The position numbers were made by a program, and so were the translations under genes. From positions 1 through 44,858 of the forward strand of contig JBLINH010000003.1 of the NCBI GenBank assembly GCA_047639165.1: a DNA stretch of 44,858 bases, in the 5' to 3' direction. Below the pieces are notes generated by a model, which did not search any database, was not told the origin of the DNA, and worked only from the letters and a program-made list of their open reading frames with translations. This DNA is from Minisyncoccia bacterium (GTDB lineage Bacteria; Patescibacteriota; Minisyncoccia; Phycocordibacterales; JAACPR01). Below, one piece after another: positions 3,575 through 19,212 of the stretch. Numbering within the stretch: the first letter of the stretch is position 1; every line of letters starts with the position of its first letter.

Positions 3575-3682
3575 ACCTGGCACCGACCTACTTTCCCCTA
3601 ATGAGTATCATCGGCGCTGAAAGACTTAACTTCCGAGTTCGGAATGTAATCGGGTATACCCCTTTCGCTAAAGCACCAGGAA
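3575..3682 (-). rRNA. rrf: 5S rRNA
   Basis: Minus strand reads TTCCTGGTGCTTTAGCG...CATTCCGAACTCGGAAGTTAAG...AGCGCCGATGATACT...GGGAAAGTAGGTCGGTGCCAGG. Confidence 0.95.
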
Positions 3683-3857: not shown

Positions 3858-3927
3858 TACAACAACAAGAATTAAGACAAGTATTTTACTGTACTTAAAA
3901 CAGCAATTTCCAAATTTCCTAATAGGA
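3858..3927 (-). repeat. 3' arm of the long 23S processing stem, pairing with 7565-7636
   Basis: acaagaattaagacaagtattttact...aaatttcctaat is the near reverse complement of attaggaaattt...agtaaaatacttgtcttaactcttgt. Confidence 0.8.
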
Positions 3928-4022
3928 TCGGGTAATTAGTACACCTCAGCTAAAAACATTGCTGTTCTTACACTTGGTGCCTATCAACCTGGTCATCTCC
4001 CAGGGCCCTCAAACGATTTCTG

Positions 4023-4071
<49 letters not shown>

Positions 4072-4208
4072 CGACATAGCTACCCGACGATGCCGCTGGC
4101 GCGACAGCCGGTAGACCAGAGGTCAGTCCATTTTGGTCCTCTCGTACTAAAAACAGATCTCCTCAAAAATCAACGCCTGCAACAGATAGGAGACCAACCT
4201 GTCTCACG

Positions 4209-4486
4209 CATATCACTCATCTATTACTAGATGTACGGACTATATCTTCATCCTCTCTAGGATGTCTAACGTGTAGTCTCTACGGGCGACCTAAGTCTTC
4301 CCTCGGAATTGTCCTTCATATTGAATAGGATTTCTCCGATATTAGTTAGCTTAACGTAATACATTGCTGAATTACGCCGCCGTGATTGTTGGTTTCTTAT
4401 TTTCGACGAAAAAAATATTTAAATTTAAACATATAACTCTCTATGGGATTCAGATGGGTTGAATGATCTATTTACTAAATCACTCA
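4209..4486 (-). mobile_element. Group I intron at 23S position L2593 (E. coli numbering), 278 nt, no homing endonuclease ORF
   Basis: Interrupts AGACCGU|CGUGAGAC; 5' exon ends in U, intron ends in G; GAGACUA/AAGAUAUAGUCC (P7); IGS AAUCACGGCGG pairs with both exons. Confidence 0.93.
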
Positions 4487-5149
4487 ACGGTCTGAACCCA
4501 GCTCGCGTAACTTTTTAATTGGCGAACAGCCAAACCCTTGGGAGCTTCTCCACCCCCAGGATAAGTTGAGCCGACATCGAGGTGCCGAACACCGCCGTCG
4601 CTATGGACGCTTAGGCGGTACCAGCCTGTTATCCCCAGGGTAACTTTTATCGGTTAATCTGCCGCGCCATCTAATGGCCACGGTAGGTTCACTATGTTCT
4701 ACTTTCGTATCTGCTTGACATCTACGTCTCGCAGTTAAGCTCTCTTATGCCATTACACTATCGGCACGGTTTCCATTCGCGCCTAGAGAACCTTAATAAA
4801 CCCCTCCGTTACTTTTTGGGAGGGTAGCGCCCCACTAAAACTGCCTACCAGATACTGTTCTAATACGGTTTTTCCGTACAAGTTAGGTTACATAATTCTA
4901 CAGAGTGGTATTTCACTGACGACTCCAGATCATCCAAAAACGATCCTTCAAAGTCTCCCACCTATTCTACGCAATAAAAGCATGCAACCAATATCAAGCT
5001 ACAGTAAAGCTCCTGGGGTCTTTTCGTCTAGTTGCAGGTAACCGGCATCTTTACCGGTATTGTATTTTCACCGAGCAAGTCCTCGAGACAGTTCCCCAGT
5101 CGTTACACCATTCGTGCACGTCTAAAATTACTAGACAAGGAATTTCGCT

Positions 5150-5445
5150 TAACGTTTCCTACGTACGTTGGACCATATCTTCACCCCACAAAGTGGGGGC
5201 ATAACGTGTGGTCTCTGAGGATTCTAAAAATATTAAATATTTTTAGTCTTTCCTGCTGATCGTTTAACTTTTTGTTGACTGGTGAAACTACACAAAGTGT
5301 AGAAGTTAAGTTTTCCAGCATATAGTTATGTATTATTTTAGGACTCATTATATATTGCTATATAACAAGGCAGCTTGTCTCTCTACCAAAATCCGTATCT
5401 AAAACAGTCCCAGTCCTTCGTTACACAAATAAATTTATGTAACGA
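5150..5445 (-). mobile_element. Group I intron at 23S position L1931, 296 nt, no ORF, 3'-terminal base A
   Basis: Interrupts CCUAAGGU|AGCGAAAUUCC; P4 AUGCUGG/AUCAGCAGG, P3 CAUAAC/GUUAUG, P7 GAGACCA/AAGAUAUGGUCC, IGS GCUGCCUU. Confidence 0.92.
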
Positions 5446-5479
<34 letters not shown>

Positions 5480-6177
5480 TCAGGGCTTATATAGTCCAGC
5501 CATAAACCGAAGTTTATGACCCCCCATATTTAACCTTCTGACATTGGTCAGGCGTCACCCCCTATACATCCTCTTACGAGTTCGCAGGGAGCTGTGTTTT
5601 TGGTAAACAGTCGCCAGGGATCTTTAGCTGCGGCCCCAATATTGCTATCAGGGCAGGCCTTATTGCTAACTTACGGCCGCTTATTTGCCGAGTTCCTTGA
5701 GGACATATCACTCGTTCGCCTTGGTCTTCTCGACCCGACTACCTGTGGCGGTTTATGGTACGGGTTGTCTTTATCTAATCTTAGAAGATTTTCTCGGAAG
5801 CGTGCTCCCCTATGTTTCCTTGTCCGAAGACAAGAATCCTCGCTCTAATTGGGGTAATGACTGCCGGATTTTCCTAACAATCCCCCTCAAAGCACGAACG
5901 TAAATCCAATAATACGCATAGAGTACAACACTCCGTCCCTCCATCGAAATAAAGACAAGTCATGGAATATTAACCATGTGTCCATCGGATCCAGCTTTCG
6001 CCATCTCCTTAGGCCCGACTAACCCTTCGCTGATTATCATTGCAAAGGAAACCTTAGTCTTTCGGCGTGCGGGGATCTCACCCGCATTGTGGTTACTTGT
6101 GCCAACATTCTTACTTCCACACGCTCCACCATGGGTCACCCCTTTGGCTTCATCGCAGAGTGGAATACTCTCCTACC

Positions 6178-6299
6178 GCTCATAGACTTCATTGAAGATC
6201 CAAAACATAAAGTTTTGGAAATAAAGAAAAATAAATACAGAAACATAAATGAGCAATATGTTCTCTATTTTTAACTTTTCCTCAATGAAATCTACAAGC
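6178..6299 (-). other. Intervening-sequence-like ~120-nt hairpin insertion in 23S helix 45 (~nt 1170)
   Basis: AT-rich insert between cctaccgc and cttcggtactatacttagccccg, closed by an 18-bp stem whose three mismatches are G-U pairs in rRNA sense. Confidence 0.8.
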
Positions 6300-6987
6300 C
6301 CTCATCTTCGGTACTATACTTAGCCCCGATTATCTTCGGTGCAGAATCTCTGAATGAGTGAGCTGTTACGCTTTCTTTAAAGGATGGCTGCTTCTAAGCC
6401 AACCTCCTCATTGTTAGAGAAATTCCACCGCCTTACTTGCACTTAGTATAGATTTAGGGACCTTAGATTGAGATCTGGGCTGTTTCCCTTTCGACCACCG
6501 GAGCTTAGCCCCCGGAGTCTAACTGCTAAGTTATAATCCTTGGTATTCGGAGTTTGATAGGTTTAACGAGGTTTCCCCCTGTTTAAACCTTCCAGTGCTC
6601 TACCCCCAAGGGGATCACTTAACGCCAACCCTAAAGCTGTTTCGGAGAGAACCAGCTATTACTAAGTTCGATTAGCTTTTCACTCCTTACCACAAGTCAT
6701 CCGAACGAGTTGAACGACGTATCGGTTCGGGCCTCCTCCTCCCTTTCGGGAGGATTCACCCTGCTCATGGTAAGCTCACTTAGTTTCGGGTCTAATACAT
6801 GCCACATAATTTTTCGCGCTATTCACACTCGGTTTCCCTAAAGCTCCAACCCGGAAGGTCTTAGCTTGCGACATATATTAACTCGTTGGCTCATTCTTCA
6901 ATAGGCATGCCGTGACCGTCGCAAGGACGGCTCCGACTACTTGTAAGCATATGGTTTCAGGTCTATTTCACTGCCCTAACAGGGCTA

Positions 6988-7027
<40 letters not shown>

Positions 7028-7300
7028 TTAAGAAGTATTTAGCCTTACCAGTTAGTACTGGTAGATTCACTCAGGCTATTCATGTCCTGAGCTACTCAAG
7101 AATAAAAACAATAAAGACAGAATATTTTCATTTACGGGACTATTACCCCCTAGGGTTGAGCTTCCCAGCTCATTCAATTAATATTCTATTTTGTAACTTT
7201 ACTTGTGTAAACACAACGTTTTTATCTTACAACCCCAAACAACTGCAAGCAGTCGTCTGGTTTGGGCTCTTTCCTTTTCGCTCGCCGCTACTAAGGAAAT

Positions 7301-7358
7301 ACCAATTGCGCCTAATCATATCCGAAAAATTCGGATGTGATTAGGTGCAATTTATATT
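7301..7358 (-). other. Hairpin expansion near 23S nt ~225
   Basis: 23-bp inverted repeat 7304-7352 where the canonical rRNA has a short helix. Confidence 0.7.
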
Positions 7359-7696
7359 GGTTTCTCTTCCTCTGGGTACTTAGATGTTTCAGTTCTCCAG
7401 GTTTGCTCCCTACATTAAAGTAGAGTAACCGTACTAGACGGCTGGGTTCCCCCATTCGGAAATTTCCGGATCAAAGGTTGCTAGGCACCTCCCCGAAACT
7501 TATCGCAGCTACGCTACGTCCTTCATCGCCTTCTTAAGCCAAGGCATCCACCATATGCTCTTAAATTCCCATTAGGAAATTTAAAAACCACTTATTTTAA
7601 AGACAAGTAAAATACTTGTCTTAACTCTTGTTGTATACCTGCCCACCTACAAAAAGGTAAAAGACCCCAAATGGGTAACACCCTTAGTGTGATGGA

Positions 7697-11953: not shown

Positions 11954-13963
11954 CTAGTTGATTGAAACGTAATCTGACTCAAACTCTTCTAGGTTGAAGT
12001 CATAGATGTTCTGAGTAGCAGTGTCAGTTGTTGCCCATGAAATTCCCTTAACAGCAGCTCGGAATAGACCATTGTCTCCCAAGTTATTGTTAGTTCTTTC
12101 AATAGTAATACTGAATGATGCTGTTGAACCTTCTGTAATCTTCACACCGTTAGTTACACCATTGTCAGTAACATTGTTTCCATTAGCTGTGAAGCTTACG
12201 GCCGCTGTTACGTCTCCTGTTGTAGCTGTTCCGGACTTATCAACTTGGTATACAACAACGTTTGTCGCTGAAGTATCTCCTGTTGTGATAGCTGTTGTAG
12301 TAGCTGATGCTGTGTCAGAAACATAAATGTCTCCGTCGATTGCCTCAACTGTGTACTTGATCACGAATGATCCAGTATCGTCATAAGTGTTTGAACCTCC
12401 TGAACTTACAGGTGGAATTTCAATATTTACAAACTGGATAACAGGTGCTACGTCATATAGACCAAATGTTTCTCCAAGAGCTGTACCTGATCGGTCACCA
12501 ACTACTAGAGTTTCACCTGATTCATCGTCAACGTCAGCAACGTTTCGGTTTGAAGCTGTGAATTCTGCCTTAATTGTATCTCCCTCAACGAATCCTGATC
12601 CAAGATCATTAAGATCAACTGTAACAACTACTTCAACCTCATCTCCTGCATCGATTGTATAATCGAAGTCTGAGAATGTTACTGAAGCGGCTGCTGATGA
12701 TGTTGATAGAGTTTCTGAGAACTCTTCACCATCGATAGTTATATATACTGTGTGTGCAACTGCATCAATATCTGTTGCAGCTCCTCCTACAGTAAGTGTA
12801 ACTGGAAGGTCTCTAACTCGTAGGTCAGAATCTCCTTCAGCTTCAAGAGTAAATCGTAGAAGCTCTACTCCATCAGTATCATCTGATGTGTCTACGTTTA
12901 TAACTGTAGCATCTAGATTATCGTCTCCAAGTGCAACCTTAAGCTCAGCATCTGTTGCTGTTGCAAAAGTTGCAAAAGTGAATGTTCGTCCTGATCCATC
13001 ATTGATGTCACCAGTTGTAGTATCTGTGATAACTGCAGCTTGTGCATCTCTGAATCGAATGCTTTCGAACTCAAGTGTCCAAGAATCTCCAGCCTCATCT
13101 GAGTCTAGATTTGAAACACCTGAAACCTTAATAACTAGTCGTCCCTCCTCGTCTTCTCCGATAACGGCTCCTGCGTCAAGAGCGATTGTCTTGTCGTAGT
13201 TGTCATCATCTTCAAATTCGTCTGCATCAATTTCTGCAAACTTTTCTCCGTCAAGCCATACAGATACATTTTCTGCATACTTTTCAAAGTCTTCGTTTGC
13301 TGTTCCTTGTGAGAAGTTTAGGTTAATTGCAACGATTTCGATGTCTGAACCATCAGCTTCGATATCGATTCCAGCTACCTCAACATCTGACTCGTCTTCT
13401 CCAACCTCTTCGTTGTTTAGTCCTGAAACGTAATCAACGTCATCAATTGATCCAGCTCCTCCTGAAAGAGAAGATGAATCTGTTGAACTTGATGAATCTG
13501 TTGAACTTGATGAGCTACCTGAACATTTTGTAGCTACGCTAGCCATTGTAGTTGGGCCAAAGTAACCTACTGCTGGAGAAACTCCATTAGCTGCTTGGTA
13601 AGCTGATAAAGCTCCTTGTGTTAGAGCACCGAAGTATCCCTTTGAAACTCCTGTTGGAATTACAAGGTATCCTTCTCCCTCCAAAAATGATTGAAGAGTT
13701 GTAACATCTGTTCCGTCTGAACCTAATGTTAGGTTTCTAGAGTATGTTCCACATGATGTTGAACTTGATGTTGATGTTGAACTTGATGATGATGAGCTTG
13801 AGCTATCATCTGTAACATTAGCCATGATCCACTCTGCTGTGAATCCTTTTGAAATGTAATCATCTAGTTCAGCCTTTGTAAGTGCCAATGCAGGAGCTGC
13901 TGACCCTAATACTAGGGCAAGAGCGATCGCTACACCGGAAACTTTAATTGCTAAATTTTTCAT
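11954..13963 (-). CDS. S-layer-like secreted acidic protein with a peptidoglycan-binding domain and Ser/Thr linkers
   Basis: Signal peptide; RNLTLGSDGTDVTTLQSFL...GYFGALTQGALSAYQAANG...GYFGPTT flanked by Cys; long D/E/T-rich beta region; strong promoters and terminator. Confidence 0.8.
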   Translation of the reverse strand: MKNLAIKVSGVAIALALVLGSAAPALALTKAELDDYISKGFTAEWIMANVTDDSSSSSSSSSTSTSSSTSCGTYSRNLTLGSDGTDVTTLQSFLEGEGYLVIPTGVSKGYFGALTQGALSAYQAANGVSPAVGYFGPTTMASVATKCSGSSSSSTDSSSSTDSSSLSGGAGSIDDVDYVSGLNNEEVGEDESDVEVAGIDIEADGSDIEIVAINLNFSQGTANEDFEKYAENVSVWLDGEKFAEIDADEFEDDDNYDKTIALDAGAVIGEDEEGRLVIKVSGVSNLDSDEAGDSWTLEFESIRFRDAQAAVITDTTTGDINDGSGRTFTFATFATATDAELKVALGDDNLDATVINVDTSDDTDGVELLRFTLEAEGDSDLRVRDLPVTLTVGGAATDIDAVAHTVYITIDGEEFSETLSTSSAAASVTFSDFDYTIDAGDEVEVVVTVDLNDLGSGFVEGDTIKAEFTASNRNVADVDDESGETLVVGDRSGTALGETFGLYDVAPVIQFVNIEIPPVSSGGSNTYDDTGSFVIKYTVEAIDGDIYVSDTASATTTAITTGDTSATNVVVYQVDKSGTATTGDVTAAVSFTANGNNVTDNGVTNGVKITEGSTASFSITIERTNNNLGDNGLFRAAVKGISWATTDTATQNIYDFNLEEFESDYVSIN

Positions 13964-14408
13964 ATATAAGAATTATTCTTTAAACATACCCCTTTCTCAA
14001 GTAATAATAATATTAAGAAAAGGAAAATGTTATTAACGTTAATAACCAATAAAATTGGAAACTTTTAATTTATGTATCTTATTCCGATTCTAATAGATAC
14101 AATTTTATTCTTTCAATCCTAACTGCAATAACAGTAGGATTATGCCGAGTCGGGGCGAGAAGGAAAAAACTAATTTTCCTATGAACCACCAACCCTTATA
14201 CCTTGTAGACTCTTTTTGCAAAGAGTTAAGATCGACTCTTTTGGTATAAAGGATTAGCTTCAAAGATTTCAGTCTGAATTCCACTCTTTAACTGACCGTG
14301 TCTGGAAAAAGAATTACAGTAAATACTATCTCGTATTTTGAGAGTTAACTCCGAACTTTATTCTAGTTTTCAATGAACCTAGAATCTCGGCTTTACTTCT
14401 CCGAGATA
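13964..14408 (-). ncRNA. Candidate long structured 5' leader RNA of the S-layer-like gene
   Basis: No long ORF; at least 8 hairpins, several with G-U pairs in minus sense; begins ~6 nt after a TATAAT box. Confidence 0.55.
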
Positions 14409-14413
14409 GCTCA

Positions 14414-14441
14414 ATTATAAACCTTATAAATTTTGTGTAAA
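14414..14441 (-). promoter_or_regulatory. Proximal sigma70 promoter of the S-layer-like gene
   Basis: TTTACA-16-TATAAT. Confidence 0.7.
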
Positions 14442-14451
14442 CAAGGTCATT

Positions 14452-14460
14452 TGTGGAAAA
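14452..14460 (-). promoter_or_regulatory. Single DnaA-box match
   Basis: TTTTCCACA fits TTWTNCACA. Confidence 0.35.
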
Positions 14461-14498
14461 CTAAATACCCACACAGGGATCTAGCATTCACGGCTGTT

Positions 14499-14526
14499 AT
14501 ACTACACTATTTTGAGTAAAAGTCAA
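14499..14526 (-). promoter_or_regulatory. Possible distal sigma70 promoter of the S-layer-like gene
   Basis: TTGACT-16-TAGTAT. Confidence 0.5.
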
Positions 14527-14540
14527 CATAAAATAGGTGT

Positions 14541-15266
14541 TTATACGAGTGAGTATTTACTCCACCTTCTCTCTCCTTCTTTCTTCAAAATACCCTCTTT
14601 TACAAGTTGTAGAAGATCTCTTTGTAAGGTTTTTTCACTATAGTTCTGAAACTTGAAAGATACATCCTTTACTGACACTATTTTCATATTCCTCACAAGA
14701 TCAGCTATCATGTCTTTTCTGCTGTTTTGTACTTCCGCTCTATCAGACTTAGTTTTAGTGTCCTTTTTATAAAGGACACTAGTATCAGAGTGTCTTTTAT
14801 CAGTATTAATGTCCTTTACACTACTTTTACCTGTCATTACTCTGTCTTTTAAGTAAACTAGAGTGTCACTACTATCATCACCGTGTACACCTATTTCTTT
14901 TAATAACTTAGTCATTTCCGTCCTTAATACGTTAAAATTAGATTTGTTTATAAGACCTACCAAGTGAGCAGAGTCTAGTAGTGTTATTGTCTTATACAAA
15001 GAAACTGGGACTTTATAGTTCTTTTTACTAGATTTTAACTGCCCTAATAAAGTTATGTCCATTAAAAGCTCCGTTACAGATTTCCTTATTGTCTTTTTTA
15101 TATTCTCCTCATCGGACAATTGGTCTGTAACCAGGTAGATAGCGCTCACGATCTTTTCTGTCTTTTTTAGTATGAAAAGAAATTGTGTGTCTTTAAAATA
15201 GTCAGTGTTTAACAACTCTAAATAATGAGAGTCGTCTATATTCCTTTCTTGTCTTTCATTTGGCAT
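14541..15266 (-). CDS. Hypothetical DNA-binding protein: N-terminal four-helix-bundle-like domain, linker, C-terminal DeoR-like winged HTH
   Basis: C-terminus VSVKDVSFKFQNYSEKTLQRDLLQLVKEGILKKEGERRWSKYSL; N-terminus KKTEKIVSAIYLVTD...SLYKTITLLDSAHLVGLINKSNF. Confidence 0.75.
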   Translation of the reverse strand: MPNERQERNIDDSHYLELLNTDYFKDTQFLFILKKTEKIVSAIYLVTDQLSDEENIKKTIRKSVTELLMDITLLGQLKSSKKNYKVPVSLYKTITLLDSAHLVGLINKSNFNVLRTEMTKLLKEIGVHGDDSSDTLVYLKDRVMTGKSSVKDINTDKRHSDTSVLYKKDTKTKSDRAEVQNSRKDMIADLVRNMKIVSVKDVSFKFQNYSEKTLQRDLLQLVKEGILKKEGERRWSKYSLV

Positions 15267-15362
15267 ATAAAGTCTTTTAAACTTATTGTCTTTTATAAAA
15301 AGTTTTTAAATCTTTTAAAAGACACTACTGTTGTCCTATTCTAATAAAATTTATGTCCTAAA
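14711..15362. repeat. Dispersed array of TGTC[C/T]TWW motifs: 15 TGTCYT cores plus degenerate copies
   Basis: Plus strand at 14711, 14759, 14791, 14810, 14843, 14988, 15090, 15159, 15188, 15250, 15287, 15332, 15354; minus strand at 14770-14778 and 15316-15324. Confidence 0.85.
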
Positions 15363-15479
15363 ACAATTGACTACATCATATTTCTTATCAATCGTTTTAA
15401 AATCACCATAAAAACAAGGTTTGATTAGACTTTTTGTGTTATCATATATTAGTAATTAGATCTCGTTTCAACTACTACA

Positions 15480-17672
15480 ATGGGAAGAAAAAAGAAAAAA
15501 GAAAAAGACGATGAAGAGAAATCAGGTTTCCTTTCTTCATTAAAAGAAGAGACAGTTGAGGGTGTCATGGCCGTTATCTTTATTCTGCTTGCCATCTTTC
15601 TATTCTTTGCATCTATTGGTAAGGCCGGTATTGTTGGTACAAAAACATATTCATTACTTACACATATATTTGGTATTGGTTATTTTCTTATACCAGTAAT
15701 CTTATTAGCTCTTGGTATTTCATTCTTTAAATCACTAAAGAAGAACTTGGCGACACCAAAAATCATTGGTGGAATACTCCTACTAATATCAGGTCTGGGT
15801 CTACTGAGTCTAACTCTAAACAAAGGTGGTATTGCTGGTTCACTTATAGCGACACCTATGACGAAATTTTTTGATGGCATTTTAAGTTTTGTATTTCTAT
15901 CTGGAATTCTTCTAATATCTATTCTTGTTATATTTGATGTGCCACTTCAAATATATGCAATAAGAAAGTTCTTAGACAGAAACAAAGAGTACGATGAAGA
16001 CGGAAACCTAATAGAAAAAGAGAAAGAGAAAGAAATTGAAGAGGAGGAAGTTGAAGAAATAGAAGAAGAAGAAGAAGAAGAAGATGAGGAAGATGAAGTC
16101 CCTGTAAAAAACAATGATCCAGTATCTCTTGTTAAAAAAGCTGCCGGGGGACTAATCTTCTTTTCAAGGAAAAGTGCAGCTTTTGATGAGTTTGAACCAC
16201 CTCCACTTTCACTTCTTGAAAAGGATTCTGGTAAGCCTGGTGTTGGAGATGTTAAAGCGAACACAAACATAATAAAGAGAACTCTAAGTAACTTTGGTAT
16301 CCAAGTAGAAATGGACGAAGTTTCAATTGGACCATCCGTAACAAGATATGCTCTAAAACCAGCAGAAGGTGTGAAGCTATCAAAAATAGTTGGACTGCAA
16401 AATGATCTCTCTCTAGCATTAGCCGCACATCCTATCAGGATAGAAGCTCCTATTCCTGGAAAGTCTTTAGTCGGTATTGAAATTCCAAACACCACAAAAA
16501 CTATTGTTGGTTTAGGGAGTTTACTGAAAGCTCCCAACTTTAAGGATTCAGACAAACCTCTACTAACATGTCTTGGTAAGGGGATCACAGGTCTTCCTCA
16601 TTTTTCGAACATGGCTAAAATGCCTCACTCTCTGATTGCTGGTGCCACAGGATCTGGTAAGTCAGTAACAATTCACGCAATGATCACTTCTCTTCTATAT
16701 AGAAACCCTCCAGAAAACCTTAAGTTCATCATGGTTGATCCTAAGAGAGTAGAACTAACTTTGTACAATAAGATCCCTCATCTACTAACACCTGTTATTA
16801 CAGACGCTAAGAAAGCTATTCTCGCACTCAAGTGGGCCGGTAAAGAAATGGATAGACGGTATGACATATTGGAATCAAACTCTGTTAGAGATATCCAGTC
16901 ATATCACGAAACTATTCTTAAACCTGCTGTTGAAAAAGCCAAAAAAGATTCTGACATAGATAGTGTTCCTGAAACGATGCCATACATAGTAGTAGTAATT
17001 GATGAGTTGGCAGACATTATGCAGGCATACCCAAGAGAACTTGAGTCAGCTATCGTTAGATTAGCTCAAATGAGTAGAGCTGTTGGAATTCACCTTATGC
17101 TTTCAACACAAAGACCTAGTGTTAATGTTATAACCGGTCTAATCAAAGCAAATATACCTGCTAGAATAGCTCTTCAAGTTGCTTCACAAATTGATTCAAG
17201 AACAATTCTTGACCAACAAGGTGCAGAGAAACTTCTAGGTGCTGGAGATATGCTATACCTATCAGGTGAAATGTCTAAACCAATTAGATTACAGTCAGCT
17301 TATATTTCTGAGAAGGAGGTTAAGAAGGTTGTTAAGTTCCTTACAGATAAGTATCAAGATGATGTTCCTGAAACAGAAATAGACATTGAAGGAAAGAATG
17401 AACCTAACTCAATATTTGATGCATTAAACGGAAGTAGTGCTGGGAATAATGACGATGATGATGAAAGTGATGAACTATACTCTGAAGCAAAAGAAATTGT
17501 TATCTCTGCAGGTAAAGCGAGCACATCATACCTTCAAAGAAAACTAAGAGTCGGATACGCTAGAGCTGCAAGACTGATAGATATTCTTGAAGATAAAGGT
17601 ATCGTAGGTCCAGCAGAAGGATCTAAACCAAGAGAAGTTCTAGTAAATGGAGACGAGGATGACGAAGAATAG
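15480..17672 (+). CDS. ftsK: DNA translocase FtsK/SpoIIIE
   Basis: N-terminal TMs, acidic linker, AGATGSGKS, DPKRVEL, IDELAD, TQRPS, gamma domain STSYLQRKLRVGYARAARLID. Confidence 0.96.
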   Translation: MGRKKKKEKDDEEKSGFLSSLKEETVEGVMAVIFILLAIFLFFASIGKAGIVGTKTYSLLTHIFGIGYFLIPVILLALGISFFKSLKKNLATPKIIGGILLLISGLGLLSLTLNKGGIAGSLIATPMTKFFDGILSFVFLSGILLISILVIFDVPLQIYAIRKFLDRNKEYDEDGNLIEKEKEKEIEEEEVEEIEEEEEEEDEEDEVPVKNNDPVSLVKKAAGGLIFFSRKSAAFDEFEPPPLSLLEKDSGKPGVGDVKANTNIIKRTLSNFGIQVEMDEVSIGPSVTRYALKPAEGVKLSKIVGLQNDLSLALAAHPIRIEAPIPGKSLVGIEIPNTTKTIVGLGSLLKAPNFKDSDKPLLTCLGKGITGLPHFSNMAKMPHSLIAGATGSGKSVTIHAMITSLLYRNPPENLKFIMVDPKRVELTLYNKIPHLLTPVITDAKKAILALKWAGKEMDRRYDILESNSVRDIQSYHETILKPAVEKAKKDSDIDSVPETMPYIVVVIDELADIMQAYPRELESAIVRLAQMSRAVGIHLMLSTQRPSVNVITGLIKANIPARIALQVASQIDSRTILDQQGAEKLLGAGDMLYLSGEMSKPIRLQSAYISEKEVKKVVKFLTDKYQDDVPETEIDIEGKNEPNSIFDALNGSSAGNNDDDDESDELYSEAKEIVISAGKASTSYLQRKLRVGYARAARLIDILEDKGIVGPAEGSKPREVLVNGDEDDEE

Positions 17673-17687
17673 TACTCAGGATGAAAT

Positions 17688-18134
17688 ATGCGAAGACAGA
17701 AACTCCCAAAAGCAAAGATAATCTCAATCACATCAATAGCTCTCCTACTGATCATATATATCCTATTTAACTTCAGAATATTCATTTCTGGACCTCAAAT
17801 AGAGATAATAGACCCTCAAAGTGGTTCTTCTTTTGAAGATCCGTTTATAGTAATCAGAGGTAAGGTAAAAAATATTTCCTTTCTCAGTATCGACGACTCC
17901 CCTATTTTCGTTGATGAGAATGGGAATTTTGGTCAGAAATTGCTCCTATCACCAGGTCTTAGTATAATTGAACTGTACGCTCGTGATAAATTTGAAAGAG
18001 AAGTAACTGAAATTCTAGAATACGTTTACAACGGAACTCTGACAGAAATAGATTTGAACGAATTGGACTCTATAGAAATAATAGTATCAACTTCTACAGA
18101 AGAAAATATCGCAACTTCTACTTCCACTTTTTAG
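17688..18134 (+). CDS. Membrane-anchored Ig-like hypothetical protein
   Basis: One TM then GPQIEIIDP...IRGKV...[16 protein letters not shown]. Confidence 0.7.
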
Positions 18135-18198
18135 AAATTTTTTATTTTTTATTCACCACTGTGCTTTATTATTACCTCATACAAACTTAAAAAATATT

Positions 18199-19212
18199 AT
18201 GGCAAAAAAAACAACACCAAAGAAAGAAGCTGGTACATCTACAATAGATGAGACATTAAAAGATATCCAAACAAAGTTTGGTGAAGGAGCAATAATGAAG
18301 CTTGGTGAAAAACCAAAGGTAGATATTAATGCAATCCCAACAGGATCAATCGGGCTTGATCATGCTCTCGGTGTCGGAGGATTACCTCAAGGAAGAATAG
18401 TTGAGATATATGGACCAGAGTCATCTGGTAAGACAACCCTTGCACTTCATGTTGTTTCAGAAGCACAAAAGAAAGGTGGTGTGTGTGCATTCATTGATGC
18501 AGAGCATGCTCTTGATCCTGTTTACGCAAAAAAAATTGGCGTTCAGATTGATGACCTTCTAGTGTCACAACCTGACACTGGTGAACAAGCTCTTGAAATC
18601 ACAGAGAGTTTAGTGAGATCAGGTAAATTAGCTGTAATTGTAATAGACTCTGTTGCAGCACTAACACCTAAAGATGAAATCGAGGGTGATATGGGAGCAC
18701 ACCATGTTGGTAAACAAGCCCGACTAATGTCACAAGCTCTGAGAAAACTAACTGCCCTAGTAGCTAAGAGCAACACAGTTGTTATCTTCATCAACCAAAT
18801 CAGAATGCAGATTGGTGTTATGTTTGGTAACCCAGAGACAACTCCAGGAGGAAAAGCCCTTAAATTCTATACTTCAGTTAGACTAGATATTAGGAGAATC
18901 GCTCAAATCAAAAAGGGTGATGAGGTTATGGGAGGTAGAGTTCGAGTTAAGGTTGTAAAAAACAAAGTAGCAGCTCCTTTCAGACTTACCGAGTTTGATC
19001 TAATGTACAACGAAGGTATATCTCGTGAAGGTGAAATAATCGCCCTAGGAGAAAAGTACGAAATCGTACAGAAAGCTGGAGCCTCATACTCATACGGAGA
19101 TATAAAGCTTGCCAGAGGATATGATGCTACAAGAACTTTCCTTAGAGAAAACAAAAAAATTGCAGACGAAATTCTAAAGAAAATTAAATCTGAAATGAAA
19201 AAAGAGGAATAA
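18199..19212 (+). CDS. recA: Recombinase RecA
   Basis: [46 protein letters not shown]. Confidence 0.99.

Follow-up and report, generated by a model that had tools for sequence, protein, structure and literature searches.

Why should a bacterial gene be filled, through its coding sequence and promoter alike, with copies of a short DNA motif that its own product is presumed to read? The question is raised by a 44,858-nucleotide stretch from a Minisyncoccia bacterium of the phylum Patescibacteriota (contig JBLINH010000003.1 of assembly GCA_047639165.1), hereafter the window, in which a dense array of the hexamer TGTCYT (Y being C or T) occupies a gene for a 241-amino-acid (aa) protein with a winged helix-turn-helix, here called the regulator gene (14541..15266, minus strand). 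The gene lies head-to-head with ftsK (15480..17672, plus strand), with which it shares a 213-bp intergenic region, an arrangement first noted in a preliminary description of this DNA and borne out here. As far as sequence can tell, the protein is probably an autoregulator that would bind its own gene and also act at the replication origin.

The array stands out sharply from its genome. Between 14711 and 15359 lie 15 TGTCYT cores, 13 on the plus strand and two on the minus strand (14773 and 15319), which reproduces the counts and positions of the preliminary description. The genome-wide rate is 1.42 per kb (882 sites in the 622,637 bases of the 22-contig assembly, numbered G000 among the genomes compared), so that 0.92 sites would be expected in 649 bp, in agreement with the earlier estimate of fewer than one, and the Poisson probability of at least 15 is 9e-14. 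A genome-wide count finds this density unmatched elsewhere in the assembly, the runner-up 650-bp stretch holding 6 copies; 10 of the 115 genomic copies of the longer TGTCYTTT fall within the array region, and among 452 non-overlapping open reading frames (ORFs) of at least 150 aa the regulator gene ranks top with 15.2 TGTCYT per kb, the second-ranked ORF having 5.7 per kb. The flanks of the sites extend the consensus to TGTCYTTTA. Eleven cores are intragenic (14711..15255, both strands), at 14711, 14759, 14773 (minus), 14791, 14810, 14843, 14988, 15090, 15159, 15188 and 15250, and the others are promoter-proximal (15287..15359), at 15287 (plus), 15319 (minus), 15332 (plus) and 15354 (plus), or -26, -58, -71 and -93 from the start codon. 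One-mismatch copies at 14832, 14864, 14919, 15056 and 15271 and a palindrome, TAGTGTCCTTT-ttat-AAAGGACACTA, at 14756-14781 inside the linker-coding part of the gene are likewise found in the sequence as they had been described.

Related genomes keep the array. A six-frame search of 61 of them with the protein found a homologue in 52, full-length matches being 30-38% identical, and 30 loci, that of the window included, were analysed for sites. All 30 orthologous loci, which range from 31 to 62% GC, carry an array, of about 10-17 sites per locus, and TGTCYT density across them is 10.8 per kb in the gene and 9.1 per kb in the 350 bp upstream, compared with 1.9 per kb downstream and 0.88 per kb in the far flanks. 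The sites share the logo TGTCYTTTA, with T at 82%, T at 72% and A at 73% in the three positions after the core. Six further loci with a full-length or nearly full-length homologue hold 9-15 sites each; five are from the same order and one (G401) is from elsewhere in the phylum. The ftsK gene is head-to-head with the regulator gene in 28 of 29 relatives, the 29th locus being too short to judge. Thus the outcome anticipated in the preliminary description, that array and ftsK synteny would persist in orthologues while the linker of the protein diverged, is what the genomes contain: the linker falls to 15% mean identity and varies in length from 39 to 102 aa.

Selection at this locus acts on the DNA, not on the protein, because sites occupy all three frames and either orientation, extend into the promoter, are still present in relatives with 60-62% GC and outnumber what is expected after shuffling of codons, all of which upholds the earlier proposal. 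The shuffle was synonymous: it leaves the protein unchanged and redistributes only the codons that the gene already has, a pool that is itself biased. It yields 4.74 +/- 1.61 sites in the regulator gene against the 11 observed (2 of 2000 shuffles reach 11), 107.7 against 250 over the 30 orthologous genes and, for the 8-mer version over the same genes, 60.3 against 189. Sense sites of the 30 pooled genes divide 46/90/58 among the frames, and 56 sites are antisense. The sense sites translate as KGH, KGQ or KRH and as (I/L/V)KD, the antisense sites as (M/V)SF, and these short site-encoded peptides recur through linkers that are otherwise unalignable, including those of two genomes at 60-62% GC. 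Pooled density is 15.3 per kb in the part encoding the N-terminal tail, 6.6 in the four-helix bundle, 17.2 in the linker and 9.9 in the winged helix, and at least one linker site is present in 27 of the 30 orthologues. Of the 96 pooled sites upstream of the gene, 81 are no more than 100 bp from its start and 91 no more than 150 bp. The array is placed where the protein tolerates sites, mainly in the disordered tail and linker, and there the DNA motif largely dictates the peptide.

Two subsidiary claims of the preliminary description fared less well. The number of sites in one orientation stands, and orientation bias as a special property of the array does not, since ARGACA lies on the coding strand for 80% of sites across the 452 ORFs of the genome and for 78% in the pooled regulator genes. 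Near-helical spacing survives as a faint period of 11.5-12 (R = 0.19) among spacings that, pooled over loci, are irregular; the phasing is weak, and the period is not used here because it is confounded by codon triplets and by the relatedness of the genomes.

The protein itself divides into three parts in an AlphaFold2 model built on an alignment of 15 sequences. An N-terminal four-helix bundle (aa 27-125; 14892..15188, minus strand), modelled at a pLDDT (per-residue confidence) above 90, resembles Avd and the proteins of 23S-rRNA intervening sequences (IVS); a disordered linker rich in K, D, T and S (aa 128-172; 14751..14885, minus strand; pLDDT below 50) is encoded by the densest intragenic part of the array; and a C-terminal helix plus winged helix-turn-helix (aa 173-241; 14544..14750, minus strand) is the presumed reader of the motif. 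The last of these matches Pfam HTH_DeoR (aa 183-229) at 21.7 bits, with a cut-off of 21 and an E-value of 1.7e-4, and HTH_DeoR is found in 13 of the 15 aligned members at E<=1 (best 2.5e-5); because the match is marginal, the domain class is secure and the subfamily is not. Penicillinase_R matches seven of the 15 members, the closest solved sequence is that of BlaI (1p6r, E 0.022), and structurally the domain resembles many winged helices (VIA Z about 10-12). It is also the best conserved part of the protein, with a mean pairwise identity of 45% and a retained block EKTIQR..L...G.LKKEGERRWS.YS, as fits the invariance of the motif. The modelled bundle is matched by Foldseek to 2gsc, 2rld, 4dwl and 8ub7 (TMt 0.71-0.81, probability 1.00), and the top seven VIA matches (8ub7_B, 2rld_D, 8ub8_C, 4dwl_C, 2gsc_D, 8ube_D and 8ubb_D) have Z-scores of 13.0-14.5 and rmsd values of 1.9-3.4 over 101-112 residues. 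On the model, then, the N-terminal domain appears to share its fold with the solved members of the bAvd and 23S_rRNA_IVP families. A complex prediction with four copies of aa 24-128 (alignment A1) scored 0.02 relative to a mark of 0.42 and is counted neither way.

Judged by its sequence matches, the protein belongs to an uncharacterised family of this order (Phycocordibacterales per lineage). An NCBIfam scan matched zero families, and Pfam finds no DeoRC, ParB, Rep or O family and no peptidase domain in it. A search of a large protein database gives 402 homologues, of which those that carry a name in their source are all "hypothetical" or generically named regulators and come from Parcubacteria or Minisyncoccota, and literature searches at the level of titles and opening lines of abstracts gave nothing on the family, the motif or the arrangement; at that level of the literature, the earlier statement that this is not a described system holds. 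Outside the order and within the class, diverged homologues, some 200 aa long, immediately precede a gene for an extracytoplasmic function (ECF)-like sigma factor (loci L074, L063, L073 and L058 of genomes G382, G522, G430 and G355, respectively), and elsewhere in the phylum the winged helix alone is matched, in other architectures, the sole full-length match being the array-bearing G401. A variant motif, TAGGACA, is repeated eight times in the 3.4-kb locus of the G382 homologue, and six of the repeats are no further than about 120 bp from its stop codon. In the spacer between that gene and the sigma-factor gene, TAGGACA repeats are accompanied by a TGTGGATAA, and the corresponding spacer of G522 contains ATTTCCACATC three or four times.

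A promoter can be picked out by eye within the upstream part of the array (15292..15319, minus strand): a putative -35 element, TTTAAA (15314-15319), a 16-nt spacer and a putative -10 element, TATAAA (15292-15297). The site at 15319 (minus) covers this -35 and the site at 15287 (plus) covers the -10, in the same register as a TGTCC-TTTACA-N16-TATAAT promoter at the second target described below. Across relatives the intergenic sites keep to -7 to -127 from the regulator start in 25 of 29 loci, and from ftsK they may be as little as 3 or as much as 370 away; because the former distance is steady and the latter variable, the upstream sites appear to belong to the regulator's own promoter. Of the functions offered in the preliminary description, an origin or initiator, a centromere-like locus linked to FtsK or an autoregulatory hub, it is the last that best fits sites anchored to the gene's own start and not to ftsK, as far as sequence evidence goes. 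An FtsK guide sequence (KOPS-like) was tried as an explanation of the motif and rejected, the motif occurring at chance in the window outside the cluster and following the coding strand.

A second conserved place, a presumed further target of the protein, has the motif at a DnaA box. The cluster there in the same assembly (contig C11, 12731-12790) is made up, in this order, of an 18-bp palindrome (TGTCCTTTATAAAGGACA), a perfect DnaA box (TTATCCACA) and two further sites. A triple-site pattern was tested in the 61 genomes with the reversed pattern as control; it occurs in 36 genomes, the control giving four matches, and the matches fall in the regulator gene, in this DnaA-box element and in the coding sequence of the CCA-adding enzyme. 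Within the order, 17 of 301 genomes have a single copy of the strict pattern ARGACA-N1-2-TTATCCACA-N4-TGTCYT (control, 0), and 48 of 151 have the looser TAAARGACA-N0-12-TTATCCACA (control, 0); in a phylum-wide sample of 301 genomes the looser pattern occurs in one, namely G000. Fourteen element loci were read (L032-L034, L035 and L036-L047 are among the loci carrying the element): the element adjoins the exonuclease III gene (xth) and, where the locus extends far enough, the gene for the CCA-adding enzyme, the two being mostly convergent. At 11 of the 14 the downstream site supplies the TTTACA of a -35 element (TGTCC-TTTACA), the next site lies in the 16-18-nt spacer and a -10-like hexamer follows. 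Within the gene for the CCA-adding enzyme, three or four TGTCYT copies lie within 45 bp (G000, C11, 14108-14155), and the same gene carries them in G011, G012, G049, G054, G055 and G056, at the conserved peptide IDLYKGQEDIK(D/G).

Beyond the element lie about 300 bp of non-coding sequence with terminator-like hairpins, followed in several genomes by a parS-like palindrome; the stretch in G000 (C11, 12725-13085, or 2026-2386 of L035) folds at z = -5.1. An Rfam E-value search of four element loci returned only noise, such as miRNA models, and ARAGORN found no tmRNA at element loci; the stretch could be an RNA gene of unknown kind or part of the origin. Directly upstream of the element in G000 (C11, 12163-12722; 4164-4722 of L031), an antitoxin-like ORF of 79 aa overlaps one of 108 aa that looks, by eye, MazF/PemK-like.

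Is the array, or this element, the place where replication starts? The array locus itself is neither origin nor terminus. To the left and right of the array alike, the window has negative GC skew, with the only deviation a local bump over the plus-strand ftsK-recA genes, and cumulative skew in G153 runs straight through its copy of the regulator gene, at 40 kb. In the six relatives that have both genes on a shared contig (G007, G011, G025, G150, G153 and G205, with genomes of 600-900 kb), 63-95 kb separate the regulator gene from dnaA, and DnaA boxes are found at 0.33 per kb in arrays and 0.54 per kb in their flanks. The suggestion in the preliminary description that the array is an origin within its initiator's gene is not supported on any of three counts, the skew having no inflection, dnaA being 63-95 kb away and DnaA boxes not being enriched. 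Nor is the companion suggestion of a ParB-like centromere supported, the genome having its own ParB and parS-like sites elsewhere: contig C8 encodes a canonical ParB with a ParB_N domain, and C11 has a perfect parS-like GTTTCACGTGAAAC around 14,942 together with two degenerate copies.

At the second target the picture is different. In G033 (contig C1) the curve of cumulative GC skew is a clean V that bottoms out at 338-340 kb, and it is there, at 341,347, that the element lies; strand bias of long ORFs flips at this place, from 14 plus and 43 minus on the left to 31 plus and 14 minus on the right, and dnaA is found at 375-376 kb, in the vicinity of six DnaA boxes. In G153 (contig C5) the minimum is broad, at 154-166 kb, and the element is at its edge (166,293); beyond it come two parS-like sites (166,643 and 168,745), another cluster, whose sites flank three DnaA boxes (170,291-170,431), and a third cluster at 171,644-171,736. 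Because of these skew minima, the element is placed at or next to the origin in both genomes. The data suggest that the origin is at the intergenic element between xth and the CCA-enzyme gene, roughly 20-35 kb from dnaA and not beside it. In G000 five DnaA-box-like sequences (at most one mismatch) occur within about 100 bp about 2 kb from the element, and this region (C11, 14795-14960) is a candidate oriC/parS region. The cluster is flanked by near-sites TAAAAGAC(C/G), just past two tRNA genes. The regulator gene is 104, 112, 116 and 126 kb from the element in four genomes. With a DnaA box flanked by the same motif at the probable origin, some 100-125 kb distant, a genuine link to replication may therefore exist, running through the protein and not through the array locus.

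These observations can be joined into a simple scheme. The winged helix would read the half-site TGTCYTTTA and, as protein accumulated, it would coat its own promoter and gene; sites over the -35 and -10 would block initiation and intragenic sites would block elongation, with steep negative feedback as the predicted result, and the many sites may in addition buffer the pool of free protein. The same protein would act at the DnaA-box element at or next to the origin. Irregularly spaced half-sites, and an Avd-like domain on a tether of 40-100 residues, suggest a multivalent oligomer, and from two presumed targets and an ftsK neighbour the protein is most likely a lineage-specific regulator tied to replication or the cell cycle.

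Several observations weigh against this scheme. The six-frame search gave no protein match in nine of the 61 relatives, and the A1 profile finds no homologue in five of those nine; three genomes without a protein match (G013, G017 and G060) nevertheless have a triple-site match, and G057, 96% complete in 90 contigs, has the DnaA-box element and no homologue detectable by protein or profile search. The pooled genomes are related and not independent, so pooled counts overstate the statistical support. For the N-terminal domain, the bAvd and 23S_rRNA_IVP matches (aa 31-124; 16.2 bits with a cut-off of 40 and 13.4 bits with a cut-off of 33.8) are both below threshold, and at E<=1 these families are found in one and two, respectively, of the 15 members; the structural Z of 13-14.5 lies by a small margin just above common helical arrangements, generic helical bundles scoring 10.2-11.2 against this domain; and oligomerization of the domain is a probable step that we infer. 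Skew was read in four genomes and has a readable minimum in two (G033 and G153), there being no clear minimum in the stretches fetched of G150 (C1) and G155 (C1). The sites in the CCA-enzyme gene could follow from the conserved peptide IDLYKGQEDIKD alone. A consensus promoter scan did not list the promoter seen by eye, and among the sequencing runs matching 13900-15900 of the window there are six DNA runs, three of them possible sources of this DNA, and no RNA run.

Other explanations of the array must be weighed with these points in mind. It may be a titration sink or timer, which soaks up protein until replication of the locus doubles the sink and alters the pool at the origin and perhaps at ftsK. 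Such a role would suit the single dominant cluster per genome, far beyond the size of an operator, the position of the other conserved target around a DnaA box at a skew minimum, and the similarity of the gene-to-element distance in four genomes; the similar distance may, however, be merely inherited gene order, a sink would be compatible with autoregulation and hard to separate from it, and the parallels with datA, which soaks up DnaA, and with the incA iterons, which soak up P1 RepA, are analogies. We consider titration unlikely as the main function. A bolder form, in which the protein regulates replication initiation by clamping the DnaA boxes of the origin and its own gene, with 10-17 sites, is a replication-coupled sink, is rather doubtful. 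That another protein, such as a DnaA partner or some regulator of a different kind, reads the motif and has the regulator gene as its strongest target would account for G057, with its element and no detectable homologue. Yet the array is centred on the regulator gene in 30 of 30 loci, no part of the protein is better conserved than the winged helix, the motif with DnaA box is confined to the order in the phylum sample (the protein itself being present outside it in G401 and as diverged class-level forms of about 200 aa), and in G382 a variant motif accompanies the gene of the diverged homologue; a different reader is decidedly unlikely.

The head-to-head ftsK of 28 of 29 relatives and the single large array might mark a chromosome landmark, in which protein and array form a centromere-like or organizing complex that works with FtsK at the septum or in segregation and control of transcription is secondary, and the order of an oligomerization-type N-terminal domain, a flexible linker and a DNA-binding C-terminal domain resembles that of nucleoid proteins. 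Against such a complex are the canonical ParB and the parS-like sites near the probable origin, the anchoring of upstream sites to the regulator start and not to ftsK, a motif unlike an FtsK guide (73 TGTCYT copies in the 44,858-base window, with a shuffled expectation of 66 +/- 8), and the pairing of class-level homologues with a sigma-factor gene and not with ftsK, all of which make it very unlikely. An origin, initiator or terminus at the array locus, with iterons inside an initiator gene or a polar fork barrier of the RTP/Ter type, is extremely improbable: the array in the linker-coding part beside an AT-rich stretch is reminiscent of ori-lambda in the O gene, and most sites share one orientation, but the skew in the window and in G153 has no inflection, DnaA boxes are sparser than in the flanks, the spacing is irregular and unlike that of tandem iterons, the bias in orientation is the same as that of coding strands across the genome, and the gene belongs to the chromosomal core, being present in 52 of 61 relatives. 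Finally, the motif might be read in mRNA as UAAARGACA or simply result from a peptide that recurs or from a composition rich in lysine, as the 78% of intragenic sites in the sense direction and the K/D-rich linker would allow. This too has next to no probability, given sites in both orientations, in palindromes and in three frames, sites in non-transcribed promoter elements at the DnaA-box locus, an excess that survives the synonymous shuffle, arrays in genomes of 60-62% GC and a sense bias equal to the genome background.

Comparison with known systems places the putative autoregulator among several of them and within none. It would function as an autoregulated repressor whose operator array is oversized. 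The features tested place it outside the ParB, Rep/O-initiator, Tus/RTP and DeoR-architecture families. With Avd and the 23S-rRNA-IVS proteins it has in common the predicted four-helix bundle of its N-terminal domain, to which it adds a linker and a winged helix not seen in the solved relatives. Avd forms pentamers. A reverse transcriptase was not noticed near the regulator gene, in the course of work that included no search aimed at one. Like DeoR and BlaI-MecI proteins it has a winged helix, and palindromic sites over promoter elements fit a repressor; unlike the DeoR architecture its helix-turn-helix is C-terminal and not N-terminal and comes without a sugar-phosphate sensor or a BlaI-type dimerization domain, and unlike ordinary operators its sites number 10-17 and lie within the regulator's own coding sequence. 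Lambda O with ori-lambda and RepC of repABC have their sites inside the gene of the binder, in lambda O within the part encoding the interdomain linker. The present array is similarly inside the gene of its presumed binder, whereas the locus has no skew inflection, DnaA-box enrichment, regular spacing or Rep/O family match and belongs to a core chromosomal gene.

Comparable in possible function are CtrA, MtrA and Spo0A, cell-cycle regulators that bind origins, the last with its 0A boxes among the DnaA boxes. Likenesses are the sites interleaved with DnaA boxes at a probable origin, the apparent self-regulation and the neighbouring division or segregation gene; differences are the lack of a receiver domain or evident partner kinase and another fold and motif, and we know of no counterpart in CtrA, MtrA or Spo0A of a very large array inside the regulator's own gene. 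DnaA-datA and P1 RepA-incA are titration loci, and the array resembles them as a single dense cluster, away from the origin, of sites for a protein predicted to act also at the origin; it differs in that the cluster is the protein's own gene, and titration would here be hypothetical, by analogy. In Bacillus subtilis parS lies inside spo0J, and ParB-parS shares with the present case a binding site within the binder's gene in an origin-proximal region; the regulator, in contrast, has no ParB_N domain and many short half-sites in place of one 16-bp palindrome, in a genome with a separate ParB and parS-like sites. Unlike Tus/Ter and RTP/Ter, the locus is not at a skew maximum, skew being monotonic in G000 and G153.

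The surroundings of the gene may be described briefly. On the plus strand from 15480 to 19212, opposite to most genes of the window, stand in a row ftsK (with Pfam FtsK_4TM, FtsK_alpha, FtsK_SpoIIIE and FtsK_gamma), a gene whose 148-aa product is hydrophobic near its N-terminus, and recA; the row may be a single operon that, to go by skew, runs head-on to replication. The adjacency of ftsK and recA brings to mind an SOS or LexA-type role; the protein has no peptidase domain, and there is no cluster of sites at recA in the window. Downstream of the regulator gene (11954-13963, minus strand) is a gene whose 669-aa product combines an N-terminus like a signal peptide with long runs of serine and a single PG_binding_1 domain. 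Further along, a 23S rRNA gene (3915-7577, minus strand) is 3663 bases long, relative to 2925 positions in the model, and has a group I intron match at 4217-4415; 5S rRNA is at 3575-3680. An Rfam search of the window and L031 at gathering thresholds found only rRNA, tRNA and the group I intron.

What would follow for the organism depends in part on the doubtful sink. If it were true, a fork copying the gene about one-third of the way along the replichore would double the sink and reset the free pool, and initiation would be coupled to ftsK-linked division; the sequence of the linker would be set mainly by the encoding of DNA sites, and the Avd-like bundle would be a multivalent hub holding several tethered winged helices, which would explain how irregular half-sites suffice. 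Independently of that reading, the locus is a clean case of overlapping codes, in which a long-kept array of sites within coding sequence uses three frames and both orientations and shapes the peptide of a disordered linker. To our knowledge very few regulators have been characterised in the ultra-small Patescibacteria, and cell-cycle control there is essentially unknown. A conserved DNA-binding family with a predicted motif, two conserved targets and ftsK as its neighbour makes a hypothesis of replication and division control in these bacteria directly testable.

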